Source: Fibrobacteria bacterium
GTDB taxonomy: Bacteria; Fibrobacterota; Chitinivibrionia; Chitinivibrionales; FEN-1185
Direction of reading: 5' to 3'
Assembly (NCBI GenBank): GCA_037447435.1
Contig: JBBIGR010000002.1
Coordinates: 128,001-192,000 of the forward strand
DNA length: 64,000 nucleotides
Shown: positions 9,727-37,704 of the stretch, piece after piece
How positions within the stretch are numbered: the stretch's first letter is position 1
How the letters are laid out: each line of letters starts with the position of its first letter
Notes under the pieces: model-generated
What the model saw: the letters and a program-made list of their open reading frames with translations, nothing else
Told to the model about the DNA's origin: nothing
Databases searched by the model: none
Program-made: the position numbers and the translations under genes

Positions 9727-9856
9727 GGTCGCCCCGTTATGCCTGTATTCATTTTCCCCATACCGTCATTTAAGGTTTTTTGACCCTCGGTCAACAATGC
9801 CACACAATATATTTTAAAGCATCGTACAACGCTTAATACTTGAAAGTACCGGAAAA

Positions 9857-20493: not shown

Positions 20494-21818
20494 GGAATTT
20501 CATGATGCGGGTTTATTGTTGCATAAGCATGCTTTGTATGGCCTGGACGGCCTTGGGCCTCAGCCTCAAACAGGCTCAGGAAATTATGTTGTTCAAAAAC
20601 ACCGATATCGTAATTGCGAATCAGGAATTCTGTAAAAAAGGCTATGAGGAAACAGAAGCCAAAGCAGTCTGGTATCCTTCATTGGATGTTGTGGGCTCAT
20701 ATAATCATGTAACGGAAAACAGCTCAACGACAATTTCAGGGCTGCCGCTACCGGGCCTTGCTCCCGGTTCCAGCGAGACTCTTCCAATCCCCAACAGCAT
20801 GAACAAAACCGAACTCGGAGTAGACCTGACATACCCTCTTACCGCTGCTTTTGTCAACGTATACAATGTCCGGTATCGTCGGCTCGCCCTGACCGTAAAG
20901 GAGGCCCAAAATCAGGGCCTTAAAAATCTACTCAGCTTCAAACTCGGTGCGATATATCTCCAATGGAACATGTCATATCAGCAAACGGACGTCTATAAAA
21001 CGTTGATTAAACAATTAGAGGAAATGTTGAATCAAACCGCAAAGCTGAAAGCGGGCGGACTGGCTTCCTCGGCAAAAGTATTGGATGTCAAAGCCCGGCT
21101 TGCCCAGGCGCAGTCGGATTTGGTCACCAACCAAAATCAATGCGATTCCCTGAAACTCGAGCTGCTCAATTTCATTCAATCCCCTGATTCGGGTTTTTTA
21201 CCCGTCGATTATTCGTTTGCAATCGATTCTCAATCACTTTTAGCAACAGACTCGGTCGGACTCAATACGTCCCGGCCGGAATTGGTTTCACTTGATATCG
21301 GCATGGAGCAATTGGCGGTGTTCCAAAGCATCATTTCGGGCCAAAAATATCCGAATCTTATTGCGCTCGCCGGTTTGCGATATGCAAATCCCGGCCTTGC
21401 CATGGGCAAAGACCAGTACATGGGATACGGTCTTTTCGGTTTGCAATTAAAATGGAATTTATTCGACGGATGGAAAGTCTCCTCTCAACATAAGCAAACT
21501 TCCGAACAAATCGACATTCTAAAGACCCAAAGACAACAACTTATCGATATGTGGTCGAATGCTATTAAAAACGCAAAGCTGTCTATCAAACGGGCAGAAC
21601 AACAGGCTGATGCGGCAAACGCATCACTTTCAGCTTCTGACGCGTATGCAACGGACGCGCAAAACAACTTTGCAGCCGGCATGGCAACCCAAACCGATGT
21701 TCTCAATGCACTCACGGCAAAATCAAAATCGGCACTACTCGTTAAGCAATCCATATTTATGAAGAACATGGCTGTTTTACAATTACTTTTTGCCTCTGGA
21801 AAAGAATTGAAATTTTAA
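20490..21818 (+). CDS. TolC-family outer membrane efflux protein
   Basis: Signal peptide, YPSL/YPNL repeats, WNLFDG motif, helical repeats; operon context. Confidence 0.87.
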   Translation: MRNFMMRVYCCISMLCMAWTALGLSLKQAQEIMLFKNTDIVIANQEFCKKGYEETEAKAVWYPSLDVVGSYNHVTENSSTTISGLPLPGLAPGSSETLPIPNSMNKTELGVDLTYPLTAAFVNVYNVRYRRLALTVKEAQNQGLKNLLSFKLGAIYLQWNMSYQQTDVYKTLIKQLEEMLNQTAKLKAGGLASSAKVLDVKARLAQAQSDLVTNQNQCDSLKLELLNFIQSPDSGFLPVDYSFAIDSQSLLATDSVGLNTSRPELVSLDIGMEQLAVFQSIISGQKYPNLIALAGLRYANPGLAMGKDQYMGYGLFGLQLKWNLFDGWKVSSQHKQTSEQIDILKTQRQQLIDMWSNAIKNAKLSIKRAEQQADAANASLSASDAYATDAQNNFAAGMATQTDVLNALTAKSKSALLVKQSIFMKNMAVLQLLFASGKELKF

Positions 21819-21897
21819 CGGCCATAAAAAATTATTCAGTTGCGATTAACCAGGCTGTTTTGAGGTCTCAAAATAAAAATCGGAAGGAAAAGATTTT

Positions 21898-22818
21898 ATG
21901 AACGCAAACACACGGCAAACCTTGCTTTTCGGACTATTGACGTCATTTTGCTTTATGCTGAATATCAATTGCGATGCAACTAAGAATAAAGAATATATCG
22001 GTTCCGCTGTTGTCGAAGCGCAGACATTTCAAATCGCCACAACCGCACAAGGTACGATTGTCGCATTGTTCAAAGCGGAAGGCCAGCATGTGGGTCCGGG
22101 AGAATTGGTGGCGATTATAGACACCGTCCCCTTAGTTCTGAAGCTCAACGAATTATCCGCGGCGCTTGCCGAGCTCGGCAGCGCCATTTCCTCGAAAAAA
22201 GTCGAGATTTCGTCTCAGGAATCCGATGTCAAGGGTGTCGACAGGGAATACAAACGCATCTCCAACCTTGTCGAACAAGGGTCGGTGCCGTCGCAGCAAA
22301 AAGATAATCTGGAAACGCAGTTCGAATCATCCAAGTTGCGGGTACAGGCAAACCGTTCCACACTGTCCGGGTTGCAAGCCAAAATCAACACCATAAATGC
22401 GCAGCGGGCCACCTTGCTCGATCAATTGTCGCGTTGCTATGTCCATTCGCCTTCTTCGGGGACAATATTGACAAAATACAAGAACCTCGGCGAGGTGGTT
22501 CCCGTCGGAAACCCGATTTTCGAACTTGGAAAATACGACACCATGCAAATCGATTTTTATGTCACGCAACCAATGCTGCCGTCGTTTACGCTGGGCCAGA
22601 AAATACGCGTTCGATTGGACAATGAAATGGCTGGGCAAAAGGAAACGCAAACCTTCTTGCCGGCAACGGTTACCTGGATCAGCGAAGATGCCGAATTCTC
22701 CCCCAAAAACATTCAAACTCGCGAAAGCAGAAACGAGCTTGTTTTCAAGATACGCGCCCAGGCGCCGAATCAAAACAGCATGTTAAAACGCGGTCTTCCC
22801 GTCGAAATATGGAGATGA
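21898..22818 (+). CDS. HlyD/YbhG-like periplasmic adaptor
   Basis: Lipoyl halves flanking a coiled coil; AEFSPKNIQTRESR..LVF motif. Confidence 0.9.
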   Translation: MNANTRQTLLFGLLTSFCFMLNINCDATKNKEYIGSAVVEAQTFQIATTAQGTIVALFKAEGQHVGPGELVAIIDTVPLVLKLNELSAALAELGSAISSKKVEISSQESDVKGVDREYKRISNLVEQGSVPSQQKDNLETQFESSKLRVQANRSTLSGLQAKINTINAQRATLLDQLSRCYVHSPSSGTILTKYKNLGEVVPVGNPIFELGKYDTMQIDFYVTQPMLPSFTLGQKIRVRLDNEMAGQKETQTFLPATVTWISEDAEFSPKNIQTRESRNELVFKIRAQAPNQNSMLKRGLPVEIWR

Positions 22819-22828
22819 AATTAACCGT

Positions 22829-23755
22829 ATGAATCCCATCGTTGCTATTTCGGATCTTTACAAAAACTACGCCGGCGAAAAGGCTTTGGACGGCGTTTCT
22901 CTTTCCGTAATGCCGGGATGTCTGTTCGGCCTTATCGGCGCGGACGGTGCGGGGAAATCGACGCTCCTGCGCATTTGCACCACGCTTGTCGCTCCCGACA
23001 AGGGTACAGCGTCGGTATTGGGATTCGATGTAGTGAAAGAATTCGCAAAAATCAGGGAAAACATCGGATACATGCCGCAGAAATTCTCTTTATATCAAGA
23101 TCTCAGCGTCCGGGAAAACATGCAGTTTTTCGCCGACCTGTTTGGCGTAAAACCCAAAGAGCGGGATGAGCGTATGAAACGCCTGCTCGATTTTTCGCAC
23201 CTCGAAAAATTCCAGGACCGGCGGGCTCGCAATCTATCGGGCGGCATGAAACAAAAACTTGCCCTTTCCTGTACCCTCATCCATACGCCGAAAGTGCTGT
23301 TTCTGGATGAGCCGACAACCGGCGTGGATCCAGTTTCCAGAAAAGAATTCTGGGAAATTTTAAAGGAATTGCGAAACCAGGGAATCGGCATCGTCGTATC
23401 GACCCCGTATATGGATGAAGCCCATTTATGCGACGAATTGCTTTTTCTCCATCACGGCAAAGCGGTCCGACAAGGTAAACCGCAGGCACTGCTCGATGCA
23501 TACCCGTATCCGCTTTTTAAGATTTCCTGTACGACGGGAACATTGACTATAGCGCAAAACATACAAACGCCCGACGGCATACTGCTCATGTACCCCGAAG
23601 GAGGCAGCATCCATGTCGCGGTAAAACAGGATGTTGATGCGGCCCGGGTTTTGGCTATCATGAAATCGATCCTTCCGGAAGCGGAATCGGCCGAAAAATG
23701 CAAGCCCAAAATCGAAGACTTGTTTATTTATTTGCTTTCCGGGGAAAAGTCATGA
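22829..23755 (+). CDS. ABC-2 type ATP-binding protein
   Basis: GADGAGKS, GYMPQKFSLY, LSGGMKQ and LDEPTTGVDP motifs. Confidence 0.93.
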   Translation: MNPIVAISDLYKNYAGEKALDGVSLSVMPGCLFGLIGADGAGKSTLLRICTTLVAPDKGTASVLGFDVVKEFAKIRENIGYMPQKFSLYQDLSVRENMQFFADLFGVKPKERDERMKRLLDFSHLEKFQDRRARNLSGGMKQKLALSCTLIHTPKVLFLDEPTTGVDPVSRKEFWEILKELRNQGIGIVVSTPYMDEAHLCDELLFLHHGKAVRQGKPQALLDAYPYPLFKISCTTGTLTIAQNIQTPDGILLMYPEGGSIHVAVKQDVDAARVLAIMKSILPEAESAEKCKPKIEDLFIYLLSGEKS

Positions 23756-24486
23756 CGACCTATACGATTCAAACCAATAAACTCACGAAAATATTCGGCA
23801 ATTATACCGCTGTCGACCAAATCGACGTTGCGGTAAAAAAGGGTGAAATTTTCGGCTTTTTAGGTGCGAACGGCGCAGGAAAGACAACGGCGATTCGGAT
23901 GCTCTGCGGACTTTTAACGCCTTCAAGCGGTCAAGGTCATGTTGCCGGATTCGACATCATGAAGGAATCTGCCAAAATCAGGTCTCGAATCGGGTATATG
24001 TCCCAAAAATTCAGTTTATACGCGGACATGACCGTTATAAACAACTTGAAATTGTTCGGTCAATTATACGGTCTTGCAAAATCCGATCTGCATTCGCGAA
24101 TCGACGAAATGTCGGACTTTCTTGGTCTTAAAGAGCTTTACCCCCGCGTTACCGGGGCGCTTCCCTGGGGATGGCAGCAGCGCCTGAGTCTTGCCTGCGC
24201 AAACCTTCACAAACCGGAAATACTGTTCCTCGACGAGCCAACCGGTTCCGTTGATCCGGTGAGCCGAAGAAATTTCTGGGACCTCATACAATCGTTGTCG
24301 GCTGGCGGCACGACCATCTTCGTGACGACGCATCATATGGATGAAGCGGAATATTGTCACAGGATATCCATAATGATTTCCGGCAAAATCGCGGCGATCG
24401 ATTCGCCCCAACAATTGAAAAAACAGAACAATTGCGAAACGCTGCTCGATGCGTTTTTGAAAATCGTCGAAGGCGGTGCACAATGA
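23752..24486 (+). CDS. ABC-2 type ATP-binding protein (second NBD, YbhF-like)
   Basis: GANGAGKT, degenerate signature LPWGWQQR and LDEPT; ATG at 23752 overlaps the previous stop. Confidence 0.92.
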   Translation: MTTYTIQTNKLTKIFGNYTAVDQIDVAVKKGEIFGFLGANGAGKTTAIRMLCGLLTPSSGQGHVAGFDIMKESAKIRSRIGYMSQKFSLYADMTVINNLKLFGQLYGLAKSDLHSRIDEMSDFLGLKELYPRVTGALPWGWQQRLSLACANLHKPEILFLDEPTGSVDPVSRRNFWDLIQSLSAGGTTIFVTTHHMDEAEYCHRISIMISGKIAAIDSPQQLKKQNNCETLLDAFLKIVEGGAQ

Positions 24487-25589
24487 ACCCGCGAATACGC
24501 GCTCTAATCCGTAAAGAAGTCTGGCATATTCTCCGCGATTGGCAAACGCTTATTATCGTCTTGGCAATGCCGGTTTTCATGATGTTTTTGTACGGCTATG
24601 CCTTGGATGTCAACATATCCGACGTCGAGGTGATGGTCGAAGACCCGAATCCCTCTCCGGAAAGTGCGGCACTCATTCGCGCAATAGACCAAAGCAGTCT
24701 CTTCAAAGTGATCGGCGTGGTTCAAAGCGTCGCGGTTCCGGGTGATATTTTCAAAAAACGCCATATAAAAGCGTTATTTCGCTTTTCACCGACATTTGCC
24801 GCAGATTTACATAAGCCTTTACACCCTGCTTCGGTGCAGGTCCTCATAGACGGATCAGACCAAAACCTGGGCACCATATTGCGCAATGTGGTGGAACCGT
24901 TTTTGCAAAAATCGGCGCTCGAGATTTTGCAGGTACCTCTTCCCTCCGGCATAACGGTACAGCAGACCATTCTGTACAATCCCCAGCAAAAAAGCGCCCG
25001 GTATTTCGTGCCCGGCCTCATGGTCATTATTCTCATGATGATTTCGGCAATGCTCACCTCGCTTACCATTACAAAAGAGAAAGAACTCGGTACATTGGAA
25101 CAAATGCTCGTGTCGCCGATAAAAGCCCATGAAATAATGATAGGGAAAATAGCGCCCTATATTCTCCTTGCGGCTATCGACGGGTTGCTCATCCTCGTCG
25201 TCGGTTATTTTGTTTTCGGCGTCACGATAAGCGGAAGCCTGCTCTTATTGAGCGCGGCAAGCTTGATCTACATTTTTACCGCGCTTGCCGTCGGATTGCT
25301 CATCAGTACCGTCAGCAGTAAACAAGAACACGCAATGTTGATCGTGTTGCCCGTGACGGTCATGCCGACGGTTTTGTTGTCCGGGTTTATTTTTCCCTTG
25401 AAAAGCATTCCTGTAGTTTTACAATGGATAGCGCATATTATTCCTGCGACATATTTTTTGGAAATCATACGCGGTATCATCCTCAAAGGCATCGGCTTTT
25501 CGGAATTATGGAAACCGATCGCGGTGTTGACCGGCATGGGCTTATTTCTGCTCATTGTTTCCATTAGAAAGTTCAGGGTAAAATTGTGA
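24483..25589 (+). CDS. ABC-2 permease (YbhS-like)
   Basis: KEVWHILRD, YNP, KEKELGTLEQ and LSGFIFP motifs. Confidence 0.92.
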   Translation: MNPRIRALIRKEVWHILRDWQTLIIVLAMPVFMMFLYGYALDVNISDVEVMVEDPNPSPESAALIRAIDQSSLFKVIGVVQSVAVPGDIFKKRHIKALFRFSPTFAADLHKPLHPASVQVLIDGSDQNLGTILRNVVEPFLQKSALEILQVPLPSGITVQQTILYNPQQKSARYFVPGLMVIILMMISAMLTSLTITKEKELGTLEQMLVSPIKAHEIMIGKIAPYILLAAIDGLLILVVGYFVFGVTISGSLLLLSAASLIYIFTALAVGLLISTVSSKQEHAMLIVLPVTVMPTVLLSGFIFPLKSIPVVLQWIAHIIPATYFLEIIRGIILKGIGFSELWKPIAVLTGMGLFLLIVSIRKFRVKL

Positions 25590-26713
25590 GATTTTTACGC
25601 CTAATGATTTGGAAAGAATTTACCCAGATCCGCTCGGATCCCATGATAATGCGTCTCATCATCATGCCCGTTGTGATACAAATGTTCATCCTGGGCTATG
25701 CCATAACGACGGAAGTGAAAAATACGGGTATTACCGTTTTGGACAGAAGTAATACCCCTCAAAGCGTTTCGCTCGTCCAAAACATTATTCATAATCAACT
25801 TTTTGAATTCTCCGGTTACGCAACGTCGGAAAGCGACGCCAAGTCGCGCCTGGATCGGGGAAATGCCAGGCTTGCGCTTATCATACCGCAAAGTTTTGCG
25901 CGGGATCTCACTTTGCAAAACGGTGCGTCGGTCGAATTACTTGTCGACGGACAAGACGCGAATTCCTCGACTGTTTCGAGCGGATACATAAATTCCATTA
26001 TTTCAGGGTGGAGCATTTCATTTCTTCGGGATAAACTGGCAGCCAGAGGATTAAAAATCCAAAACATTCTTCCCATAGAAGTCCGGCCTACCATTTTATA
26101 CAATCCGCTTTTAAAATCCACGTGGTATATGGTTCCGGCACTCGCGGTCGTGCTGGTCACTATGATAACGGCCCTGCTCACCGGGTTTTCTATAGTAAAA
26201 GAAAAGGAGGCCGGCACATTGGAACAATTGATGGTTACGCCCGTGAGTCCGGTTCATGTGGTGTTGGGAAAAATTGTTCCGTACATCGCGATCGGCTTAT
26301 TCGAACTCTGCGCGGTACTCGCTGCTGCCACATTATGGTTCGGCGTACCGTTCAAAGGAAATTTCTTCATTCTTCTTTTATTCGGGCTCATTTATATGAC
26401 TTCGTCTTTGGGAATAGGGATTTTAGTTTCAACAATTGCCAGAAACGCCCAGCAAGTATTGTTCATGCTTTGGTTTATTTTGATTTTCTTCTTATTTTTG
26501 TCCGGCTTCTTTCTCGCGTTGGAAAACATGCCCGTATGGGTCCAAAAACTTACGCTTATCAACCCATTGCGGTATTTCATGTTCATATTGCGCGAAATGT
26601 TTTTAAAAGGAAGCGGATTTGGAGAACTCTGGGAACAGGGACTCGCCATGCTTTGCATCGGCGGTTTTGTTTTTGGCGTCGCATTGCTTTCGTTTCACCG
26701 GAAAGTCGCATAA
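25586..26713 (+). CDS. ABC-2 permease (YbhR-like)
   Basis: KEFTQIRSD, YNP, KEKEAGTLEQLMVTP and NPLRYF motifs. Confidence 0.92.
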   Translation: MRFLRLMIWKEFTQIRSDPMIMRLIIMPVVIQMFILGYAITTEVKNTGITVLDRSNTPQSVSLVQNIIHNQLFEFSGYATSESDAKSRLDRGNARLALIIPQSFARDLTLQNGASVELLVDGQDANSSTVSSGYINSIISGWSISFLRDKLAARGLKIQNILPIEVRPTILYNPLLKSTWYMVPALAVVLVTMITALLTGFSIVKEKEAGTLEQLMVTPVSPVHVVLGKIVPYIAIGLFELCAVLAAATLWFGVPFKGNFFILLLFGLIYMTSSLGIGILVSTIARNAQQVLFMLWFILIFFLFLSGFFLALENMPVWVQKLTLINPLRYFMFILREMFLKGSGFGELWEQGLAMLCIGGFVFGVALLSFHRKVA

Positions 26714-26778: not shown

Positions 26779-28122
26779 ATGAAAATCACCTTCATTTACC
26801 CGAAATTCGAAAAATTTTTAGAGACGTATCCGCAACTTGCCGAAATGCCAGCCATTGCCGCGACCTGGGCGTTTCGCATGCCGCCTGCCATGGGTATTCC
26901 GATTTTGATCAATTTGCTGCCTGCCGATGTTTCCTGGAAAGTCGTTGACCAAAACATTGAGCCCGTCGACTTCGACGACGATGCCGATATAATCGCATTA
27001 AGCTATTTCACCCCGCAGGCAGGCTTTGCCCATGAAATCGGGGACGAGTTTTTACGGCGGAATAAAACGGTCATAGCCGGCGGTATGCATCCGTCTATGG
27101 CTCCTCACGATGCCGCGCTTCATTGCACGAGCCTTTGCATTGGAGAAGCAGACACTATTTGGCAAACCATTATCGATGATTATTCTCATAATCGCCTAAA
27201 AAAAGTATATAAAGCGACCGGCGTTCCATTGCCGGAACAAATCGTTTCCGCAAAAAAAGGGATTTTCGACATTGAGGATAAATACGATTGGCATGCATCG
27301 CTCGTTTCCATCACGCGCGGATGTCCGTTCGGTTGCGAATGGTGCAACATTCCCTTGTATCAAGACACCAAGATACGGCTGAGGCCCATCGAAACCGTCG
27401 TTGCCGAAATACAACAACTTACGGATAAGGAATTTTACATTACCGACGATATGGTAATGCTGAACAGACCCCGCATCACGCGGTACATGATGGACCTTTG
27501 CGAGCGGATCAAGGATTTCAAAGTCCGAATGTTTCTGTCCTGTTCTCCGGCAATGCACACCGATCCGGCATTTCTTGATTCACTGGCCCGGGCTGGTGCG
27601 ACAAGCATGTACACTGTTTTCGCAAGCGACCCGTTCAGCCAAAGGTTTTACAAGAAAGACCTCTTGGTTTGGAATCGCACCCTCGATCTGGTAAGACAGC
27701 TTGAAGATCGGGGAATACGGTTTTTCGGATCGTTCGGCGTGGGATTCGATACCATGGGAGAGGATCAGTTCGATGTCATTTTAGAATTTTGCAAACATGC
27801 GAACGTAAAAACCGCGGAGTTTTTCATTGCCACGCCATTTCCCGGAACGCCTTTTTGGAATCGCGTTGAAGAGGAGCACAGGTTCATTCTTCCGAGAAAC
27901 TGGAAAAAGTATAATTGCGCCAATATTGTTTTTAAACCGAAATTGATTTCCGAAGATATGCTTTTAAACGGATTTTTACGGTTATGGAAGGAATTTTTCA
28001 AAAGTACCGATCTGGAAGAATCTTTATCCTCCTTTCGACAAAAGGCCGAAAACATTTTAAAATCCAGGGAATATTCCCAAAATGTTAAAGATGCGGTCAA
28101 AAAAGGTCTTTTAAAATTGTAA
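26779..28122 (+). CDS. Cobalamin-binding radical SAM enzyme (paralog A)
   Basis: B12-binding N-domain (GGMHPS...IGEAD); RGCPFGCEWC; TPFPGT. Confidence 0.9.
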   Translation: MKITFIYPKFEKFLETYPQLAEMPAIAATWAFRMPPAMGIPILINLLPADVSWKVVDQNIEPVDFDDDADIIALSYFTPQAGFAHEIGDEFLRRNKTVIAGGMHPSMAPHDAALHCTSLCIGEADTIWQTIIDDYSHNRLKKVYKATGVPLPEQIVSAKKGIFDIEDKYDWHASLVSITRGCPFGCEWCNIPLYQDTKIRLRPIETVVAEIQQLTDKEFYITDDMVMLNRPRITRYMMDLCERIKDFKVRMFLSCSPAMHTDPAFLDSLARAGATSMYTVFASDPFSQRFYKKDLLVWNRTLDLVRQLEDRGIRFFGSFGVGFDTMGEDQFDVILEFCKHANVKTAEFFIATPFPGTPFWNRVEEEHRFILPRNWKKYNCANIVFKPKLISEDMLLNGFLRLWKEFFKSTDLEESLSSFRQKAENILKSREYSQNVKDAVKKGLLKL

Positions 28123-28191
28123 TTAATTACTATTTGTATCCCAACGTAAAGGGGCTGCGAACTCCTCTTTTCAAAAGTAAAGGATTAAACC

Positions 28192-28926
28192 TTGGGTAAG
28201 AACATAGTTGTCACGGGCGGATCTAAAGGAATAGGCAAATCGATAGTCGAAACGCTTGCTGCAGAGGGTAATTCGATCGTATTTACCTATAATAGCGGCA
28301 AAGAGGCTGCGGAACAAACGGTATCCGATCTTTCAAAGCAAGGTTTAAAAGTTTTTGCTTTCCAGGCCGACCTGTCGGATTTTGCTCAAGCCGAAAAGCT
28401 TATCGCTTTTGCAAAGGAAACGCTTGGAAGCATAGATTGTCTGGTCAACAATGCAGGAATTACCCGCGATAAGAGCCTTTTCATCATGCCGAAACAGGAT
28501 TGGGACGATGTCATCAACACAAATTTGAACGGCTATTTTAACGTCACACGAAACGTTATCGGCTATTTCATGAAGAATAAAAATGGCTGCATTGTAAACA
28601 TTACTTCTGTCAGTGGAATGTCGGGCGTTGGGGGACAAACCAATTACTGCGCTTCGAAAGCAGGGATTATCGGATTTACCAAAAGCCTTGCCAAGGAAGT
28701 TGCCAAACTTTCGATTCGCGTCAATTGCGTGGCACCGGGCTACATTGAGACGGACATGACAAAAAAAATGAGCGAAAAGCATCTTGAAGAAGTCAAAAAG
28801 GCAATTCCGATGCAACGCCTCGGAACATCGAATGAGGTGGCAGACCTTGTTTCGTTTCTTCTCTCGAACAAAGCTTCCTATATTACCGGACAGGTTTTTA
28901 CCGTTGACGGCGGATTAACCTCATGA
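28192..28926 (+). CDS. fabG: 3-oxoacyl-ACP reductase
   Basis: TGGSKGIG, NNAGITRD, YCASKAG, PGYIETDMT and ITGQVFTVDGG motifs. Confidence 0.9.
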   Translation: MGKNIVVTGGSKGIGKSIVETLAAEGNSIVFTYNSGKEAAEQTVSDLSKQGLKVFAFQADLSDFAQAEKLIAFAKETLGSIDCLVNNAGITRDKSLFIMPKQDWDDVINTNLNGYFNVTRNVIGYFMKNKNGCIVNITSVSGMSGVGGQTNYCASKAGIIGFTKSLAKEVAKLSIRVNCVAPGYIETDMTKKMSEKHLEEVKKAIPMQRLGTSNEVADLVSFLLSNKASYITGQVFTVDGGLTS

Positions 28927-29143
28927 AAAAGGTGAATATCCGGTAAAAAATCAGTGAAAATTCCCAAAATTTTGCAATATGGGGTTTATGTAAATCTCAT
29001 ATTTTCGGCTTTATGCATTTACCTGTCGGATTTTATTGAACCAATTCTCTGATTAAAGTATTTTAAAAAGTTGAATGAAAATGCATTTTTAACGCGGTTT
29101 ATCGCAATTTCGTGTCTGCCCATTATCCTATTTAAATAAATAT

Positions 29144-30373
29144 ATGAAAAAAGAAAGAGTCGTCATTACAGGACTTGGCGCTGTAACGCCCATCGGCATC
29201 GGTATCGATGCTTTTTGGAATGCGGCTAAAAATGGTACTAACGGTTTAAAACCCATAACGGCTTTTGACGCTTCGATGTTCAGAACCGATATCGGCGGCG
29301 AAGTAAAAAATTTTCAGCCGCAAGAATATCTTTCTTCGGCCGAAATATCCTCAATGGGCAGATCAAGCCATTTTGCAATCGCTGCTTCGGAAATGGCAAT
29401 TAAACAATCCGGCATCGATATTTCCAAGGAAAATCCCTTCCGTTTCGGCGTAAGCCTTGGCACAACAATGGGTGAGCCTCAAATTCTTGAACAATGCATA
29501 GAAAAAATTTTCGCAGCAAATAAAAGAACGGAAACTATTGATTCAAATTTGCCGGGTCAATATCCTTGCGGAGTCATTGCAGCTCATGTCGCACGTCATT
29601 TCAAAGCATGCGGACCAACCATTATGATTCCCACCGCTTGCGCTGCGGGAAACTATGCCATCGGCTATGCTTTCGACCTGCTCGGGCTCGGTTGCGCTGA
29701 TATCGTTATTGCCGGAGGCAGCGACCCTATTTCAAAAATCGCCTATACCGGCTTTAGCCGGCTTCTCGCAACTGCAAAGGAATCATGCAAACCGTTCGAT
29801 AAAAACCGCGATGGAATGGCCGTAGGCGAAGGTGCGGGCATGCTTGTCATGGAAACATTGACTCATGCGCAAAAACGCGGCGCGACAATACTTGCCGAAG
29901 TGCTTGGATACGGTATTGCCTGTGACGCGCATAACATGACCATTCCCGATCCCTCGGGCTCAGGCGGTATTTTAGCACTCAGCAAAGCCTTTGCAAACGC
30001 AAATATCTCTCCCGACACCATCGATTACATCAGTGCCCATGGTACGGGTACGAAGGAAAACGATAAAACCGAGACATTCATAATAAAATCCGTTTTCCAA
30101 GAAAAAGCAAAATCGATTCCGATATCTTCAATTAAATCAATGATCGGACATACAATGGGAGCGGCGTCGGCAATCGAAGCGGTCGCCTGTTGTTTAATGA
30201 TTCAACACAACACGCTTTTGCCGACAATCAATTATTCCGAACCGGATCCTGAATGCGATTTGGATTATGTGCCGAATGTCAGCAGGAACGCGTCGGTAAA
30301 CCGTATCGTTTCCAATGCCTATGCGTTCGGCGGAAACACCTCCGCGCTCATTGTAGGAAGGTTTGGGGCCTGA
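29144..30373 (+). CDS. fabF: Beta-ketoacyl-ACP synthase (catalytically intact)
   Basis: TACAAG (Cys), SAHGTGT and IGHTMGA (His-His), AFGG. Confidence 0.9.
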   Translation: MKKERVVITGLGAVTPIGIGIDAFWNAAKNGTNGLKPITAFDASMFRTDIGGEVKNFQPQEYLSSAEISSMGRSSHFAIAASEMAIKQSGIDISKENPFRFGVSLGTTMGEPQILEQCIEKIFAANKRTETIDSNLPGQYPCGVIAAHVARHFKACGPTIMIPTACAAGNYAIGYAFDLLGLGCADIVIAGGSDPISKIAYTGFSRLLATAKESCKPFDKNRDGMAVGEGAGMLVMETLTHAQKRGATILAEVLGYGIACDAHNMTIPDPSGSGGILALSKAFANANISPDTIDYISAHGTGTKENDKTETFIIKSVFQEKAKSIPISSIKSMIGHTMGAASAIEAVACCLMIQHNTLLPTINYSEPDPECDLDYVPNVSRNASVNRIVSNAYAFGGNTSALIVGRFGA

Positions 30374-30375
30374 CT

Positions 30376-31569
30376 GTGAAAATCGTTATAACAAAAGCAA
30401 GTTCCTATAGCTGCCTCGGTTCGACAAAAGAAGAAATTGCGAAATCTCTGAGTGCCCCTTCGCAACTAAATTCGGTAACCGATTTCGGATTTCATTCGTT
30501 CTCTCAGCCGCAGCCCTGTTTCAGCATACCTCATTTTGACCCGGAACCGATTTTAGGGAAAAAAGGCTTGCGTACCAAAGACAGGGCAACGAAACTGCTT
30601 CTTGCTACGTGCGAACTCGGATTCAAGGAAGCATTTGAAACGACGCCCGAAGATTCACGAATGGGCATTTGCATCGGTACCGCTTTTGGAAGCGTGCAAA
30701 GCATCGGCGACTTCCTGTCCGACGCCATTGCCAACGGCCCGCACAACGTCAATCCCATGGCATTTGCAAACACCGTCATCAATGCGCCGACATCGAATGC
30801 AAATATCCGTTATACGTCGCGCATGTCCAGTACGACCGTTTCGACGACATTTAATGCGGGCATGGATGCTCTGGCATATGCCTTTACCTATATTAAAAGC
30901 GGGCACGCTTCGCGTCTTCTTGTCGGCGGGCTCGAGGAAATAAGCTACTATGCCCTTGCCGGACTTGCAAAAAGCAATGTACTTTCCGACCAGGGAAGGT
31001 GTCTGCCTTTCGGTTCAAATGCCGACGGTTTTTTACTGGGTGAAGGATGCGCGGTTTTTTGCGTCGAAACCGAGGAATCGGCACTCGCGCGCAATGCAAC
31101 CATTCTTGCGGAAATCGCGGGAATACACAGCTGCTTCGATCCCAAGCAAGGCGGCCACGGATACAACCCGGACGCTTCCGGAGCACGTCATACGGTTTCG
31201 GAGGCATGCCTGCAAGCGGAAATTTCTCCAAAAGACATAACCTTTGTAGCGGCAAGTGCGAACGGTAATCCCTATGGTGACGCCATGGAAGCAAAAGTCA
31301 TAGCCGATCTGTTACCCGAAGTCCCTGTTACAGCATATAAATCAAAAACAGGTGAATGCCTCGGCGCTTCCGGCGCTCTGAATATCGCCTGCGCACTGTC
31401 CGATATGGAAGCGCAACGAATCAGCGGTATCGCAAACCGATATGAACTCAATGCACCTATCAATTTGGTTTTTAATACCATTGAAGGCGTTTCGAGCCGA
31501 TACGTTCTTGTAAATTCATTCTCATGCGATGGATATTGCGCAAGTTTGGTACTTAAAAACAGGCTTTAA
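30376..31569 (+). CDS. Non-catalytic ketosynthase homolog (chain-length-factor-like)
   Basis: KS fold (GEGCAVF, YKSKTGE) but the triad is replaced: TTFNAG, SANGNP, TGECLG. GTG start 2 nt after the fabF stop. Confidence 0.82.
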   Translation: MKIVITKASSYSCLGSTKEEIAKSLSAPSQLNSVTDFGFHSFSQPQPCFSIPHFDPEPILGKKGLRTKDRATKLLLATCELGFKEAFETTPEDSRMGICIGTAFGSVQSIGDFLSDAIANGPHNVNPMAFANTVINAPTSNANIRYTSRMSSTTVSTTFNAGMDALAYAFTYIKSGHASRLLVGGLEEISYYALAGLAKSNVLSDQGRCLPFGSNADGFLLGEGCAVFCVETEESALARNATILAEIAGIHSCFDPKQGGHGYNPDASGARHTVSEACLQAEISPKDITFVAASANGNPYGDAMEAKVIADLLPEVPVTAYKSKTGECLGASGALNIACALSDMEAQRISGIANRYELNAPINLVFNTIEGVSSRYVLVNSFSCDGYCASLVLKNRL

Positions 31570-31605
31570 AATTCATTTGTACATCATACGCCCAAAGGAG
31601 AAAGA

Positions 31606-31866
31606 ATGACAACACCGGACATCAAATCTGCGATTCGCACCCTGATTGTGGATATAGCGGAGGATATGGAAATCGATGAAGCAAAAATTACCGATGATGC
31701 GCATTTTATTAAAGACATGGGCCTTGATTCCATGGCGCTTTTGGAAGTACTTGCCACTATGGAAAAGAAATTCAGCGTTACGATTCCGGAAACCGAGTTT
31801 CCCAATATCGTGACCATCAACAAATGCGCAGAGACGGTCCAGAAATATCTCGACCAAAAAAAATAA
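31606..31866 (+). CDS. Acyl carrier protein
   Basis: 86 aa, acidic, DMGLDSMALLE phosphopantetheine Ser motif; AAGGAG RBS. Confidence 0.93.
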   Translation: MTTPDIKSAIRTLIVDIAEDMEIDEAKITDDAHFIKDMGLDSMALLEVLATMEKKFSVTIPETEFPNIVTINKCAETVQKYLDQKK

Positions 31867-31883
31867 TTTCATCATTGTCTATG

Positions 31884-31915
31884 CAGAGACGTACGTGCAG
31901 TGCGTCTCTGTTTTT
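31884..31915 (+). terminator. Stem-loop plus U-tract after ACP (REP-like)
   Basis: CAGAGACGTAC-GTGCA-GTGCGTCTCTG followed by TTTTT. Confidence 0.65.
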
Positions 31916-31956
31916 CCCGATTTTTCCCTACCGAATTTCACAGTGCCGACCGCCGT

Positions 31957-33984
31957 ATGATAAAACAAAAAATTCTGTTGGTTTACATTGGAAACGAACA
32001 AGGCTCCTGGGGATCGACGGCATTTCCCAAAGCAGCTCATTATTATGTCATGCCAGGAATTTTATATTGTGCCAAGGTGCTCCAGCAGAGCGCTTTGACA
32101 AAAGATAGATTTGAAATTTCCTATCGTTTTTTCAACAGCGCGGTGCAATCGCAAACGGAAATCCTTTCCGACATTCTCGCAAGCGATGTCGACTGCATAG
32201 GGTTTTCGGTATACTGCTGGAACGTTTCATGGTCTCTGTCCTTAATCCGCAACATTAAAGAAAATTCGCCCTCAAAACTAATCGTTGCGGGCGGTCCCGA
32301 ATTATGCATGAAAAACAGTGATGAATGCGGACTATTTTTTAAAAACAACCCCGGCCTCGACATGCTTGTTTTCGGAGAATCCGAGTCAAAGCTTCCAGAA
32401 CTTATGGTCGCGTTGTTCGACAACACTCCGTTGTCGCCGCACATTACGGGCTTCGCGTTTTCCCGGGATTTTGGTGCGAGCGGAGAATTTACCAAAGGAT
32501 ATACCCTAATAACCGACGACATTCCGACTATCTACCCTTTTGCGCTTGAGGTCAAACGATCTGCATCATGCGGTATCGCCGTGGTGTACGAAACGGGTCG
32601 CGGATGCCCGTACAAATGCATTTATTGCCAATTCAGCCATCGCAACCACAAGCCGTACCGATACGACGTTACCAGGGTCGAGCGTGAATTGGAATGGCTT
32701 TTCGAGGAGAATTTCGAATGCATACATTTTGCCGATGCCGTGTTTGATCTTGACATTTCGTATGCTAAAACCATTTTAAACATATGCAAAAAGCATAACC
32801 GGGCGACATCGTTATTCTTTTATTGCTCGTTTTACAAGATGGACGAAGAGCTTGCAGCGTTATTTTGCGAGTCCCAAGCGCAAATATGCGTCGGAATTCA
32901 ATCGACCAACAAGGATGTTCTTTCTAAAATCAATAGGGCACTGAGCCCGCGCCTGTTTCATGACATAAAGGATACTCTTTTAAAATATCCTATCAATTTC
33001 TATGTCGACCTTATTTTCGGGTTACCGCACGATACGCTCAAGTCCTTTACAAAGTCCCTATCCGACACTTTAAAACTTGCGCCCAGTTTCATCATGGTAT
33101 TTCCGCTCACGCTGATAAAAGGAACCCCGCTGGATACCAATGCCGATGCGTATGGAATAAAAGTGCATTCCCCGCAATCCATAAACTCCTTGGACCTCAT
33201 GTGCGACATCGAGTATAAAAACATCGCTTTGTATAAAGACTTCCTTATTGATGACCTCATCGAATTCGACGATATCGCCTTGGCTCTTTTTTATTTTTAT
33301 TCCCGTTTCAGGCTCAGCCTCAGTTATTTGGAAAAACGATGTGGGGAAAATAACGGCTCCCTGTACCAGCGAATCGGGCAAAAAATCAAATCATTTTTAA
33401 AACAGCGAGGGATTGTCGCGACAAACACAAATTTCATCGAAGGGTTCGAAGACGAAATCAAATCCATCTTTTTCTTTGAAGCGAAACGTTGTGGGGCCAT
33501 GCAACGCGAACTACTTGCTTTTGAGGAAATTTTCAAACTGGACATTTACCGTATTCTCATGGTCTCGTCGCCGCAGCGCGAGAAGCTTTTCAAAACCGGT
33601 TTAAAAATGAGACAGGCCGCCGTTGCGAAGGAACTTCTTCCGGAAACGGCACTCATGCGAATTGCGCCGGGAAAAGCCGTTTCAATTCCATTTTCCTTTA
33701 ATGACCTTCTGTCGCTTTCTACCATCAAAGAGGAAATTCAAAATAAACCCGATATTGTTTACGTTTGTTCTCCTTTTTCCCGATGGGATGTTCTCATGAT
33801 GCCTCTATCGCCGTTGCAAAAGTTCTTGCTCGACACAATTCCGGTCGACAGGCCGGCAAAATTCAAGCAAATTCTACAATCCGCAAAGATCGGTTTTTAC
33901 AAAGCTTCCGGTATTGACCCTGATGAAAATTCTATATTTCAAAATGTCCGGATGCTTGCTTCCTTGGATATTATTTCCTTTTGA
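31957..33984 (+). CDS. Cobalamin-binding radical SAM enzyme with long C-terminal extension
   Basis: IGFSVYCWN, AGGPE, FGESE; YETGRGCPYKCIYC; GIQS, DLIFGLP, LIKGTPL. Confidence 0.88.
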   Translation: MIKQKILLVYIGNEQGSWGSTAFPKAAHYYVMPGILYCAKVLQQSALTKDRFEISYRFFNSAVQSQTEILSDILASDVDCIGFSVYCWNVSWSLSLIRNIKENSPSKLIVAGGPELCMKNSDECGLFFKNNPGLDMLVFGESESKLPELMVALFDNTPLSPHITGFAFSRDFGASGEFTKGYTLITDDIPTIYPFALEVKRSASCGIAVVYETGRGCPYKCIYCQFSHRNHKPYRYDVTRVERELEWLFEENFECIHFADAVFDLDISYAKTILNICKKHNRATSLFFYCSFYKMDEELAALFCESQAQICVGIQSTNKDVLSKINRALSPRLFHDIKDTLLKYPINFYVDLIFGLPHDTLKSFTKSLSDTLKLAPSFIMVFPLTLIKGTPLDTNADAYGIKVHSPQSINSLDLMCDIEYKNIALYKDFLIDDLIEFDDIALALFYFYSRFRLSLSYLEKRCGENNGSLYQRIGQKIKSFLKQRGIVATNTNFIEGFEDEIKSIFFFEAKRCGAMQRELLAFEEIFKLDIYRILMVSSPQREKLFKTGLKMRQAAVAKELLPETALMRIAPGKAVSIPFSFNDLLSLSTIKEEIQNKPDIVYVCSPFSRWDVLMMPLSPLQKFLLDTIPVDRPAKFKQILQSAKIGFYKASGIDPDENSIFQNVRMLASLDIISF

Positions 33985-34067
33985 GTTTTGATATTTTCGC
34001 TGTCGTCATGCATATTTAACCATTATTTTCCCAATACTCCTCACATCGAAAGTATTTGCATAAAAGT

Positions 34068-34946
34068 ATGTCGCTTTCAAGTCATCTTCAGTCAAAAGAA
34101 TTCATGCACTCGCTTCCCGATTTATCCTTAGAAAAACTCAAGGATCATATCCTGTCAAAAGGCCGTCAATGGTATGACTCCAATCCTTTGGAATCCGAAA
34201 CAATCAAGAAAAACTGCCTCGAATTCGGCTTAGATTGCGACGCACAAAGATTAAAGAATATCCAACATCATATTCTACTTCATTATTATGAAAAGCTTAT
34301 TCCGTTCACCATGACTCCGCATCGCTATGCCGAGTATTTAAAAACCAGAATGACCTTGGCAAACGAAATTTCGTTTATTAAAGAAAGTTTGTCACAAAAA
34401 AAAGGCGTGCTGTTGGCAGTATGCCATTTTGGTGCGGTGGAACTGATCGGTCCGCGTCTGGCCTGCGAAGGAATTCCCTTTACAGGAACTTTGAAATTCG
34501 CAACAGCAGGATTGTCCAATGCCGCAAAAAGCGCCGCGCAAAACCTTTCAAAAACCGGACTTTTTGCCGAAATACAATTCATAGAAGTTGGTTCGACAAC
34601 TTCCGCATCGCCGCTGGAAATGGCTGCCGTACTGAGGCGCGGCGAATTGCTTATGTCGGTTTTCGACGAATTGACCCGATACAGCACGGAAGTCACTTTG
34701 TTTGGTAAAAAGGTTTTGGGCGGCGCAGGCCTCCAAAAACTCGTATCGTTTATGCACGGCGAAATTACGGTCTGCATCGCATTTGCAGTGAGAAGGGAGA
34801 ACGAAACCTATACGCTGCACGTCGCGTCGCTCGATACTCGTGATAAATCGATAATTCAAACAATGTACCGGTCTTTTGAAACAATCACCGCAGGCCAATT
34901 GGATCAATGGTATTTTTTGCATGAAGGAATACCTTTTGTCAAATAA
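34068..34946 (+). CDS. Lipid A/lysophospholipid-type acyltransferase (LpxL-like, divergent)
   Basis: KGVLLAVCHFGAVE (HxxxxE), LRRGE, VTLFG and QWYFLH motifs. Confidence 0.75.
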   Translation: MSLSSHLQSKEFMHSLPDLSLEKLKDHILSKGRQWYDSNPLESETIKKNCLEFGLDCDAQRLKNIQHHILLHYYEKLIPFTMTPHRYAEYLKTRMTLANEISFIKESLSQKKGVLLAVCHFGAVELIGPRLACEGIPFTGTLKFATAGLSNAAKSAAQNLSKTGLFAEIQFIEVGSTTSASPLEMAAVLRRGELLMSVFDELTRYSTEVTLFGKKVLGGAGLQKLVSFMHGEITVCIAFAVRRENETYTLHVASLDTRDKSIIQTMYRSFETITAGQLDQWYFLHEGIPFVK

Positions 34947-36354
34947 TTTCGACGTCGCAATTATCGGCTCCGGTATCGGAGGGCTTACGTGCGGCGCGAT
35001 CCTCGCGCAAAAGGGTTTGCGCGTTTGCGTGGCCGAAAAACATTTCCAAATCGGCGGATGCGCTCAGAGTTTTTCGCGCAAAGGCTTTACTTTTGATTCT
35101 TCGGTGCACTCGGCGCCCATGGCCGACGACGGTTTTATCTGCGGCATCTTGCATGACCTCGGCATTCGAAAAGATTTACGCATTATCCCTTATACGAATG
35201 CAATGCAAACGGTAACGCCTTCGGGGCTGTATTCGTATCCGCGGGGAATTGCGGAAATGCTTAATCGATTCGGAGCCGATTTTCCAAATGAAAAGGACTC
35301 CCTTGTTGCCCTTTTCAACGACACGGCAAATCGATTGTCGATTTACAAAGGTAAGTCTAAGGATATCGAAAAACCTTTGCCGCCATCATCAATGTCGTAT
35401 AGGGAATATATCGCTTCATTCATCCGCAATCCCCAATTGCAAGAAAAGTTTTTTACCATTTGGCCGTTCGGCGGCACATCTCCCTCTTTTGCGCCCCTTT
35501 TTAATGCGTTTATATTCTATGTCCACACCGTAGAGGGGTCTCATTATATCGAGGGTGGGTTTTCAAAACTCGCCGATGCTCTGGCGTCGGTTATCGTAAA
35601 CCGTAACGGTCAAATCAAAACGAATTGGGACGCACAATCGCTGACTATTTCCCACTCAAAAAGGGCTACGGCACTTGTAAATAGCAACAGCGAAACGATC
35701 CGGGCGAACGCCTTTGTTTCGAATATCAGTCCGTATCTTTTGCATACATCGGTTATCCCGGAGTCTTTTAGAAATAAATTGTGGCTATCCCGGCTCAATA
35801 ACCTTCGCCCTTCCCTTTCCGCTTTTTGCGTTTATTGCGGGCTTCAAGGCGATGCGGCGGAGTTCGTCCCGAACAATATTACGCTGTGGTTTGCACATGA
35901 CGACCACGACTCGATTTACAAAAGAATCCTTTCGGGTCCGCCCGATCAAATCGATCATTTGTTAATCATGCGTCCACCGGGCTTGTCGGAAAAAAGCACG
36001 CTTACCTTCATGTATTTTATACGGCACGACGCCTTCGAAAATTGGGCGGCGGCGAAAAACGCTCTGCGCGACGCCATAGTGTCGAAAGCAAAATCGCTTA
36101 TCGGCGATTTTGCCAAACAATTGGTAGTCTGCGAAACCGCAACGCCAAAAACCATAGAGCGGTATACCGGAAATACCAACGGTGCCTTGTACGGTTTCGA
36201 AAACATAAAGACTCTGTATGGTCAAACGAAATTGCCGTCGACAACGCATATCGCCAACGTGTATCAAACCGGTCATTGGACCAAATCGGGCAACGGAATG
36301 TACAATGTCATGGCAAGCGCCCAAGAAACCGCTTTTGCCGTTTTAAACTCATAG
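34936..36354 (+). CDS. FAD-dependent phytoene desaturase/retinol saturase family oxidoreductase
   Basis: IIGSGIGGL, EKHFQIGG, GFTFD, EGGFSKLADAL, TPKTIERYT.NTNGALYG and TGHWT motifs; TTG start with AAGGA RBS. Confidence 0.87.
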   Translation: MSNNFDVAIIGSGIGGLTCGAILAQKGLRVCVAEKHFQIGGCAQSFSRKGFTFDSSVHSAPMADDGFICGILHDLGIRKDLRIIPYTNAMQTVTPSGLYSYPRGIAEMLNRFGADFPNEKDSLVALFNDTANRLSIYKGKSKDIEKPLPPSSMSYREYIASFIRNPQLQEKFFTIWPFGGTSPSFAPLFNAFIFYVHTVEGSHYIEGGFSKLADALASVIVNRNGQIKTNWDAQSLTISHSKRATALVNSNSETIRANAFVSNISPYLLHTSVIPESFRNKLWLSRLNNLRPSLSAFCVYCGLQGDAAEFVPNNITLWFAHDDHDSIYKRILSGPPDQIDHLLIMRPPGLSEKSTLTFMYFIRHDAFENWAAAKNALRDAIVSKAKSLIGDFAKQLVVCETATPKTIERYTGNTNGALYGFENIKTLYGQTKLPSTTHIANVYQTGHWTKSGNGMYNVMASAQETAFAVLNS

Positions 36355-36363
36355 AAACGACAC

Positions 36364-37653
36364 ATGAAAATAAGATTGATTTACCCGAAATTCAAAAAGT
36401 TCCTCGAGGACCATCGCGATCTGCGTAACTCGCTTTCGAATCACGTGATCGGCGATTATACCATGCCGCCGTCGCTTGCGTTGCCTATAATCGCGGCTTT
36501 GACCCCCAATGATATCGACGTGGCACTTACCGACGACAATATCGAAACAATCGATTTCGATGAAAAAGCCGATCTTGTTGCAATAAGCTGCTTTACGCCG
36601 CAAGCCGGGCGCGCATATGAAATTGCCGATGCATTTCGAAAACGCGGTACCAAAACCATTTTGGGCGGCATTCATCCAACAGCCATGCCCGATGAGGCAC
36701 TTTTACATGCCGATAGTGTGTGTATAGGCGAAGTCGAAGATCTTTGGGAAACGATTTTACAAGATGCAAAAACCAATTCTTTGAAACCTAAATACAGCGC
36801 ATCCCAGTATTCGGATATCGCCAAACACCCGATTCCAAAGCGCAAAATCTTCAATGAAAACAATTACCGTTGGAACGCGCACCTTGTCCAAGTTATGAGA
36901 GGGTGCCCGGCGCCCTGTGCTGGCTGTCCTGTTCCCTATATGGGCGGCACAATGTTCCGGCTTCGCCCCGTAGACAACATCGTTGCCGACATCCTCTCGA
37001 TGCCATACAAGGAATTCTATTTTACCGATGATACCGTGATGTTGCCCGGCAAAAAACCCATGAAATTTTTACTTTCCATAATGGAACGAACCAAGGAACT
37101 TTCCGACATTAACATATTTTTGGCTTCCACTATGATGATGGCGCCTGATCCGCAATTTTATAAAAAGCTAAAAGAGGGCGGCGTCGCTTCCATGTATACG
37201 GTTTTCGGCTTCGATCGCCTGTCGCAAACATTATTCGATAAAGATTGTTCCAAAGCCGACTGGCAGGCGGGAATCGACTTGGTGAGAATGATCGAAGATA
37301 GCGGCATTCATTTTTTCGGTTCGTTCGGAATCGGGTTCGATATTCAGGACGCCGGCGCTGCCGACAGGATTTTACAATTCACCCGTGACGCAAAAATCGA
37401 TTTGGCGGAATTCTATATTCCCACGCCGTTTCCCGGTACTAAATTCGGCAAACAAATTATTGAAGAGAACAGGCTCTTACACCGGAATTATTCTTTGTGG
37501 AACCATGCGAATGTCGTCTTCAAACCCAAGAATTTTTCGGAAGAGGAATTGTTGCAAAACTTTTTTTATATTTGGAAAGAATTCTTCAAGGACAAAAACC
37601 CGCGAAATACGGTTCGCAGTTTTACACTCAACGATAGCAAAACCGGAAAGTAG
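36364..37653 (+). CDS. Cobalamin-binding radical SAM enzyme (paralog B)
   Basis: GGIHPTAMPDEALLHADSVCIGEVE; RGCPAPCAGC; TPFPGT; clear paralog of 26779-28122. Confidence 0.88.
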   Translation: MKIRLIYPKFKKFLEDHRDLRNSLSNHVIGDYTMPPSLALPIIAALTPNDIDVALTDDNIETIDFDEKADLVAISCFTPQAGRAYEIADAFRKRGTKTILGGIHPTAMPDEALLHADSVCIGEVEDLWETILQDAKTNSLKPKYSASQYSDIAKHPIPKRKIFNENNYRWNAHLVQVMRGCPAPCAGCPVPYMGGTMFRLRPVDNIVADILSMPYKEFYFTDDTVMLPGKKPMKFLLSIMERTKELSDINIFLASTMMMAPDPQFYKKLKEGGVASMYTVFGFDRLSQTLFDKDCSKADWQAGIDLVRMIEDSGIHFFGSFGIGFDIQDAGAADRILQFTRDAKIDLAEFYIPTPFPGTKFGKQIIEENRLLHRNYSLWNHANVVFKPKNFSEEELLQNFFYIWKEFFKDKNPRNTVRSFTLNDSKTGK

Positions 37654-37678: not shown

Positions 37679-37704
37679 CAAGGGCGATTGATTAATCGCC
37701 CTTG
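37679..37704. terminator. Hairpin between convergent genes (REP-like, probable terminator)
   Basis: CAAGGGCGATT-GATT-AATCGCCCTTG, perfect 11-bp stem. Confidence 0.6.

Follow-up and report, generated by a model that had tools for sequence, protein, structure and literature searches.

A predicted lipid pathway with an anammox-related ketosynthase pair and a candidate subfamily of B12 radical enzymes in a Fibrobacteria bacterium

Introduction

Which lipid does a bacterium build with genes that resemble the candidate ladderane loci of anammox bacteria? The question is raised by nine genes, named A to I here in their order, at positions 26779-37653 of a 64,000-nucleotide stretch of Fibrobacteria bacterium (GCA_037447435.1, contig JBBIGR010000002.1, positions 128,001 to 192,000), which we call the window. 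An earlier note had read them as a ladderane-like lipid cluster with three B12 radical S-adenosylmethionine (SAM) enzymes. Ladderane biosynthesis itself is unsolved, partly because anammox bacteria lack genetics and pure-culture chemistry (bioRxiv 10.64898/2026.05.19.726425). Clusters labelled 'ladderane' by antiSMASH are listed, uncharacterised, in Fibrobacterota and other non-anammox genomes (10.1101/2022.12.20.521206), and a syntenic cluster has been described in Desulfotalea psychrophila, an organism without ladderanes (PMC2649909). Look-alike clusters are already known outside anammox bacteria, and the present cluster is not in itself evidence of ladderanes. Our literature search, which covered few subscription journals, found no paper describing its product.

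Here we describe what appears to be an order-wide, uncharacterised lipid pathway that combines an anammox-related ketosynthase (KS)/chain-length factor (CLF) pair, a putative dedicated glycolipid acyltransferase and an unstudied subfamily of B12-type radical SAM enzymes. With somewhat better than even confidence we read it as a second fatty-acid line on a dedicated acyl carrier protein (ACP), which would build an unusual unsaturated acyl chain, tailor it by radical chemistry and pass it on to a glycolipid of the membrane, for instance lipid A. The product is probably not a true ladderane. We infer all reactions and the product from genes, motifs, relationships and co-occurrence.

Results

The ketosynthase pair

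Gene C keeps the catalytic triad of an active ketosynthase (Cys166/His299/His336). At the same columns gene D carries Phe159/Ser294/Glu327, and because of this replacement it is predicted to be non-catalytic and unable to condense. In the PDB the best matches of both proteins were chains of one entry: gene C matched 9S5H_B with 466 bits (next match 333) and gene D matched 9S5H_C with 204 bits (next match 127). We take 9S5H to be the anammox FabF (KS/CLF) heterodimer of bioRxiv 10.64898/2026.05.19.726425, because it is nearly identical to the syntenic loci and because 9S5I contains the ACP; the main text of that preprint gives no PDB code. The relevant anammox locus, Cluster I (kuste3603-3608), is reported to encode amxACP, amxFabZ, amxFabF2, amxFabFmut, a phytoene-dehydrogenase-like (PDH-like) protein and a B12 radical SAM enzyme. 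Gene C is 51-54% identical to the KS of Cluster I versus 39% to the housekeeping FabF of its own genome, and gene D is 33-36% identical to the Cluster I CLF. In a careful tree gene C grouped with the Cluster I KS at 83/84 (SH-like approximate likelihood-ratio test, SH-aLRT, 95 in a quick tree). In a separate tree gene D joined the CLFs of both anammox types (91/93), and this tree did not assign it to Cluster I specifically. The support for these groupings is moderate, not strong. The KS/CLF phylogeny that the earlier note had proposed as a check thus agrees with the PDB matches and identities in placing the pair closest to that of Cluster I. Of the CLF tunnel residues, the three that the preprint names (F130, T133 and V134) are kept in gene D, and two KS tunnel positions of gene C differ in our own mapping (Ala to Met and Ile to Pro).

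A pair of this kind might instead make a conjugated polyene lipid, a pigment or antioxidant, in the manner of aryl polyenes, with the radical enzymes adding minor methyl groups. This is unlikely in our estimation, although KS/CLF with ketoreductase and dehydratase and no enoyl reductase is polyene logic. The CLF scored 58-69 bits against the KS-partner chains 7F28_B, 6KXD_B and 1TQY_B (for the first two we presume the pathway labels) but reached 204 bits against 9S5H_C. Moreover, the nine genes include neither an aromatic starter ligase nor a second ACP or a glycosyltransferase, and Pfam found no AMP-binding gene among them or among the seven upstream genes. The acyltransferase, an RND-type exporter and a small partner protein do parallel ApeJ, ApeM and ApeL, yet the table of aryl polyene genes in the same source (PMC8253772) has no counterpart of the invariant CrtI-like enzyme. 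The KS of ishigamide is given as the closest structural homologue of the anammox KS (bioRxiv 10.64898/2026.05.19.726425), which also favours a polyene.

Outside the phylum, 22 of 401 sampled Planctomycetota genomes had a gene D match, and nine loci were taken from eight of those 22. Seven had the Cluster I order (ACP-FabZ-KS-CLF-PDH-radical SAM); one of the other two had the order of the second anammox cluster (kuste2802-2805-like) and one another layout. No CLF match was found in 56 genomes of a class-level search around genome G041. One Planctomycetota locus (L129, G284:C120:1-12000) combines ACP, KS and CLF with two CrtI-like genes and three B12-type radical SAM genes beside an FtsX-type permease, and is an independent layout with three radical enzymes.

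An invariant core and optional radical enzymes

Genes D, F, G, H and I served as queries against 81 genomes of the order. These genomes are kin and some are incomplete, so that the counts overstate independence, and a miss means not found with that query. Gene D was found in 55/81 genomes, with a 56th, partial copy at a looser threshold. G and H were each present in 57/81, in the same 57 genomes. All 55 CLF-positive genomes had G and H, and 24 of the 26 CLF-negative genomes had neither; the two G/H genomes without a full D are 68-69% complete. The co-occurrence of D, G and H persisted where the genes are unlinked. The core is therefore co-conserved elsewhere, a point that the earlier note had left to be checked. 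A search of 120 further genomes from the phylum gave no gene D match.

The radical enzymes behave differently. With matches sorted by identity and one frameshifted A counted, I was found in 46/81 and A in 39/81 genomes. In the 57 core genomes, 35 had both, 11 had I only, four had A only and seven had neither. A or I occurred in 50/57 core genomes versus 0/24 core-negative ones. A and I, likely tailoring enzymes, are thus optional, being dispensable in 7/57 core genomes. Gene F was present in 10/81 genomes, lay within the cluster in only one of these ten, and was in 0 of 72 related loci (which overlap the 81 genomes). The earlier note had made three B12 radical enzymes the hallmark of the cluster; the local presence of F and the optional A and I rule this definition out. 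A dedicated line for a special chain is the simplest account, because the core of KS, CLF, ACP, flavoenzyme and acyltransferase is invariant and the radical enzymes are optional.

In the 72 loci, A was present in 35, 25 of them with KS and CLF, and H and I formed one open reading frame (ORF) in six. FabZ was present in 22 of the 28 loci with KS and CLF, and two Spirochaetota loci had the order KS-CLF-ACP-A. In one genome (L019/L085, G004:C21) all other genes are intact but the A orthologue is broken up over three frames, by assembly error or decay.

The genome also holds a second KS/CLF cluster on contig C22 (10756-22431). It is led by a radical SAM-KS-CLF fusion of 1254 aa and a KS-CLF fusion of 774 aa and continues with ACP, GcvT-like, FabG and FabD genes, followed by convergent flavodoxin-like, FabZ and PlsC-like genes. 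Clusters of this type were seen in at least 38 of the 81 genomes, 36 of those core-positive. In gene content (KS, ACP, FabG, FabZ, FabD and an aminomethyltransferase-like gene) it is reminiscent of the cyl polyene operon (PMC6985545).

Radical SAM enzymes A, I and F

All three radical proteins keep the CxxxCxxC motif, and its cysteines are invariant in gene A (C182/C186/C189) and gene I (C181/C185/C188). Both Radical_SAM and B12-binding domains were detected in each, as the earlier note had labelled them; with B12-binding scores of 27.1 (A), 36.5 (F) and 50.3 bits (I) against a Pfam cut-off of 32.1, F and I pass and A falls short. A and I are paralogues (43.6% identity). A model of gene A (predicted local distance difference test, pLDDT, 87) matched the folds of AprD4, MgmA, TsrM and CysS.

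None of the three passes TIGR04072 (rSAM_ladder_B12): they scored 35 (A), 54 (F) and 46 bits (I) against a cut-off of 360. In a tree of 24 rows from a careful search, with F left out, A, I and the radical domain fused to KS-CLF on C22 formed a 100/100 clade apart from the anammox radical SAM pair, with the C22 domain sister to A and I. By the approximately unbiased (AU) test, a grouping of A/I with only the Cluster I enzymes was rejected (p 2e-61), and one with the enzymes of both anammox types was rejected marginally (p 0.048). Identity to the Cluster I radical SAM enzyme was 27-28% for I and 24-26% for A. Judged by these comparisons, A and I are not orthologues of the radical enzymes of either anammox cluster. 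The description 'ladderane-like' is hence fair for the chain-building pair and the gene order, and not for the radical chemistry.

These results bear on the possibility that the cluster follows the route of Cluster I to ladderane or other strained polycyclic chains. The grouping of KS and CLF with anammox enzymes, the three conserved tunnel residues and the shared order of KS-CLF ... CrtI-like then radical SAM would fit such a route. We regard it as highly improbable, given that A and I fall outside the anammox radical clade and far below the TIGR04072 cut-off, that seven core genomes have neither, and that no G orthologue was found in the one anammox-type genome searched (best 32 bits). The syntenic cluster of D. 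psychrophila also argues against it, as does Cluster I itself, which in the sources cited has no direct experimental tie to ladderanes. The only gene of the genome above the TIGR04072 cut-off (C16:33653-35002, 404 bits) has no fab neighbours, and we rejected the idea of a full set of counterparts to the anammox candidate loci in this genome. Two other loci pair similar functions: C30:43560-47028 has the order radical SAM-KS-KS-like, a B12-type radical SAM gene with a divergent KS, and C23:5672-13721 brings together a B12-type radical SAM gene, ACP, a divergent KS and acyl-CoA enzymes.

Gene F is of another type. Its best PDB matches were TokK (90 bits) and CysS (74 bits), which cover the first 400 residues only, and it has the TokK/CysS-type motif set of B12 domain, CxxxCxxC, S-x-Y-x-W, GG and GE. 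Its G-x-S-x-Y-x-W motif is as in the lower-axial motif of TokK (definitions in PMC9204698). Against the KedN5-family model it reached 92 of 700 bits, below cut-off. Gene F is thus predicted to be a TokK-type radical methylase. Its GC content and third-position GC content (GC3) are the same as those of its neighbours, and therefore composition gives no date for its arrival.

Alternatively, the core could supply a glycolipid with a special chain that stays unmodified (very long, hydroxy or monounsaturated), and the targets of A, I and F would be finished membrane lipids, at a later stage, or the C22 pathway. In three genomes A alone lies directly 5' of housekeeping fabF (L026, L027, L028), and in these genomes KS-CLF-ACP and the acyltransferase lie elsewhere. 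Six Planctomycetota loci have I-type genes without nearby fab genes. Such I-type genes (L093-L097, L099, L107) are 59-60% identical to I and nest within the I clade, and a search of two genomes of this kind gave weak matches to the CLF and none to H. F, in turn, tracks the C22 fusion in 10/10 genomes. We nevertheless hold this explanation to be rather improbable, as within the order A and I never occurred without the core (0/24) and the fusions H-I and radical SAM-KS-CLF tie the subfamily to the ACP line. It is because of these two fusions, the first in 6/72 loci, that we place the A/I/C22 subfamily at an acyl-ACP line.

Acyltransferase, flavoenzyme and carrier protein

Gene G matched PF03279 (Lip_A_acyltrans) with 30.8 bits (cut-off 22.3). 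No NCBIfam model matched it at E 0.001, and a profile of G searched against the PDB by sequence gave at best E 0.07. The H-x4-E motif is kept in gene G (ACYLTRANSFERASE), with H120 and E125 invariant in 11 orthologues. A model of G (pLDDT 89) gave Foldseek template-modelling (TM) scores of 0.64-0.67 with PatA and 0.65-0.66 with LpxM. This glycolipid-acyltransferase fold supports the earlier proposal that an acyltransferase transfers the chain to a membrane lipid. Canonical PF03279 members were found in 81/81 genomes (LpxC in 72/81), and G is therefore probably an extra, pathway-specific enzyme. No orthologue of G was found in five outside genomes searched.

Gene H scored 113 bits with crtI_fam, below the cut-off of 238, and is 26-29% identical to the anammox PDH-like protein. 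A quick tree without true CrtI outgroups left its orthology to kuste3607 unresolved. Anammox PDH-like proteins are reported not to replace CrtI (PMC4790861). Several families have a second CrtI-like gene, about 20% identical to H, between G and H (L092:6924-8423, L034, L162, L168, L169).

In relatives, gene E follows CLF with 58-81% identity. It is 43-47% identical to amxACP over 58 aa, and ordinary ACPs score as high in the PDB. After ACP or CLF, some relatives (L039, L047, L051, L119) carry a metallo-beta-lactamase-fold gene, which could encode a release or editing hydrolase.

Housekeeping genes and genome background

A separate housekeeping locus, another check that the earlier note had called for, is present on contig C27 with the order plsX-fabH-fabD-fabG-acp-fabF-rnc (gene names from our own reading of the ORFs plus sequence comparison). 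It rules out that the nine genes are the housekeeping fab set, and because it sits separately we regard the cluster as accessory. Domain scans found neither FabZ nor an enoyl reductase among the nine genes, and a FabZ remnant was looked for between genes B and C without success. FabZ matched the genome in two places only, at an LpxC-linked ORF on C39 and on C22. The genome also encodes CobS and MetH and has two cobalamin riboswitches.

Layout and flanks

All nine ORFs are open and intact and have the order that the earlier note had given (ORF list, domain scans; Table 1). Its FabG, FabF, non-catalytic KS, ACP, acyltransferase and phytoene-desaturase-family labels agree with our Pfam and NCBIfam scans.

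Table 1. Genes of the cluster and flanking features (positions in the window)
Feature	Position	Strand	Basis
Gene A, B12-type radical SAM enzyme, 447 aa	26779..28122	+	Pfam Radical_SAM 47 bits
Gene B, FabG ketoreductase, 244 aa	28192..28926	+	TIGR01830 312 bits, cut-off 297.75
Gene C, active ketosynthase, anammox FabF2-like, 409 aa	29144..30373	+	triad residues, PDB match
Gene D, non-catalytic ketosynthase, chain-length-factor type, 397 aa	30376..31569	+	triad lost
Gene E, dedicated acyl carrier protein, 86 aa, Ser42 in GLDS	31606..31866	+	PP-binding 43.6 bits
Gene F, TokK/CysS-type B12 radical SAM enzyme, predicted methylase, 675 aa	31957..33984	+	PDB matches, motifs
Gene G, PatA/LpxM-fold acyltransferase, 292 aa, H120-x4-E125	34068..34946	+	PF03279, modelled fold
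Gene H, FAD oxidoreductase of the CrtI family, ~477 aa (start known to within a few codons)	34921..36354	+	Amino_oxidase/CrtI-like
Gene I, B12-type radical SAM enzyme, 429 aa	36364..37653	+	B12-binding 50.3 bits
11-pair hairpin between gene I and convergent aminotransferase	37679..37704	.	consensus scan only
Exporter-like run: TetR, TolC-like, HlyD, two ABC ATPases, two ABC-2 permeases	19816..26713	+	Pfam

The hairpin and the convergent aminotransferase likely form the right boundary of the cluster, although terminator-like sites in the consensus scan were overall not commoner than chance (21 versus a shuffle mean of 26.3). A promoter scan gave 44 sites versus 29.5 +/- 5 in shuffles, none of them decisive. 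From the left, a possible exporter of seven genes leads in the same direction into gene A. This run lies 5' of A in 3/6 genomes of the genus, so that the linkage is not conserved, and in other families an MMPL gene takes its place at many loci. Many relatives have an MMPL transporter together with a protein of 130-145 aa without Pfam match ahead of the cluster (L024:4445-7119 and similar loci); neither was found in the studied genome. Further left in the window (7897-11177), a fused membrane/ATPase ABC transporter is divergent from PAP2 phosphatase and GT2 genes; the group possibly serves envelope lipid handling.

The TolC/HlyD/ABC run directly upstream, and the hydrolase that follows the ACP in some relatives, would suit a released and exported small molecule rather than a structural lipid. 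This is the least probable of the explanations that we weighed: exporter linkage is limited to half of the genus genomes, G is invariant and the hydrolase is not, and single-copy retention in 55/81 genomes, even where the genes are scattered, looks like a cell-envelope function.

Discussion

In the pathway that we favour, a dedicated-ACP line for a radical-tailored chain, KS C and the dead KS D would pair up in a single heterodimer and elongate the chain on ACP E, by analogy with the anammox pair. FabG would reduce, and dehydration would be performed by a FabZ encoded elsewhere in the genome (relatives have FabZ in the cluster). Since the cluster has no enoyl reductase, flavoenzyme H likely sets the final double-bond pattern, by desaturation, isomerisation or reduction, with the direction putative. 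A and I would add carbon-carbon bonds to the chain, with F as predicted methylase, and G would move the chain from the ACP onto a glycolipid, at one of its sugars or at a hydroxyacyl group. B12 radical enzymes acting on lipids can either methylate or close rings (PMC13459092), and for A and I sequence cannot decide between the two. We weakly favour methyl or cyclopropane-type branching over ring closure.

Several observations weigh against this pathway. The top fold match of gene A is AprD4, a dehydratase, which to our knowledge does not need cobalamin. A and I carry an Asp on strand 4 without the usual G-x-E-S motif, and the B12 domain of A falls under the Pfam cut-off; for these three reasons B12 use by A and I is putative. 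F may instead belong to the C22 pathway, as all ten F genomes have the C22-type fusion and in two of them F lies beside or inside that cluster. For G, the scores with PatA and LpxM are similar, at 17-19% identity, which does not fix the acceptor; the G model lacks an N-terminal membrane helix in our own reading, and lipid A gene profiles do not track the cluster across genomes. FabZ and MMPL of the cluster type were not found in the studied genome. Finally, the cultured Chitinispirillum alkaliphilum is described as having ordinary dominant fatty acids, with two of its seven polar lipids unidentified (PMC4814513), which would weigh against the pathway if that strain carries the cluster.

A bolder, rather doubtful version of the pathway has the A/I/C22 clade as a ring-forming B12 radical family on the anammox-type KS/CLF line, with a polycyclic acyl group placed onto an outer-membrane glycolipid. 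If this were true, and the family formed cyclobutane, cyclopentane or cyclopropane-chain acyl groups, ladderane-like chemistry would exist outside anammox bacteria, in fermenters, and the natural variants with zero to three radical enzymes would form a series for dissecting it. Under the favoured reading, too, the cluster is informative. It provides a close relative of the anammox KS/CLF engine in another phylum, order-wide, with an acyltransferase that hints at the destination of the chain, and its natural variants separate the invariant core from the optional radical enzymes. Its product, once worked out, would show the default output of this engine and how the B12 radical subfamily acts on acyl chains.

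Comparison with known systems

Like anammox Cluster I, the studied cluster combines an active KS and a dead KS of the same clade with a dedicated ACP and a CrtI-like gene followed by a B12-type radical SAM gene. In contrast to Cluster I, its radical enzymes are of another subfamily (24-28% identity), and the studied copy has no FabZ. Additional to the Cluster I set are FabG, the acyltransferase with its PatA/LpxM fold, the second of the two paralogous radical enzymes and a TokK-type enzyme. Gene F itself resembles TokK and CysS in length, domain order and the lower-axial S-x-Y-x-W motif (PMC9204698).

The aryl polyene clusters (ApeA-R) are described as sharing KS/CLF, ACP, ketoreductase, dehydratase, acyltransferase, an RND-type exporter and a membrane-anchored chain (PMC8253772). 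Unlike them, the studied cluster has no aryl starter ligase, thioesterase, glycosyltransferase or second ACP, its CLF is distant, and it has CrtI-like and B12 radical enzymes.

The rhizobial system for very-long-chain acyl groups is reported with the layout acpXL-fabZXL-fabF2XL-fabF1XL-adhlA2XL-lpxXL (PMC11901934). A dedicated ACP, two FabF-type genes, a PF03279 acyltransferase and one redox enzyme stand together in both systems, with FabZ in relatives of the studied cluster, and on this analogy AcpXL/LpxXL, which the earlier note had overlooked, is the closer architectural parallel. The two are not orthologous, as the KS reached 285 of 629 bits with PRK06501, the CLF 38 of 320 with PRK06519 and the ACP 40 of 83 with PRK06508, models that we take to represent the XL genes. 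In the studied cluster, unlike in the rhizobial one, the redox enzyme is CrtI-like and not of the Adh type, and radical SAM genes are added.

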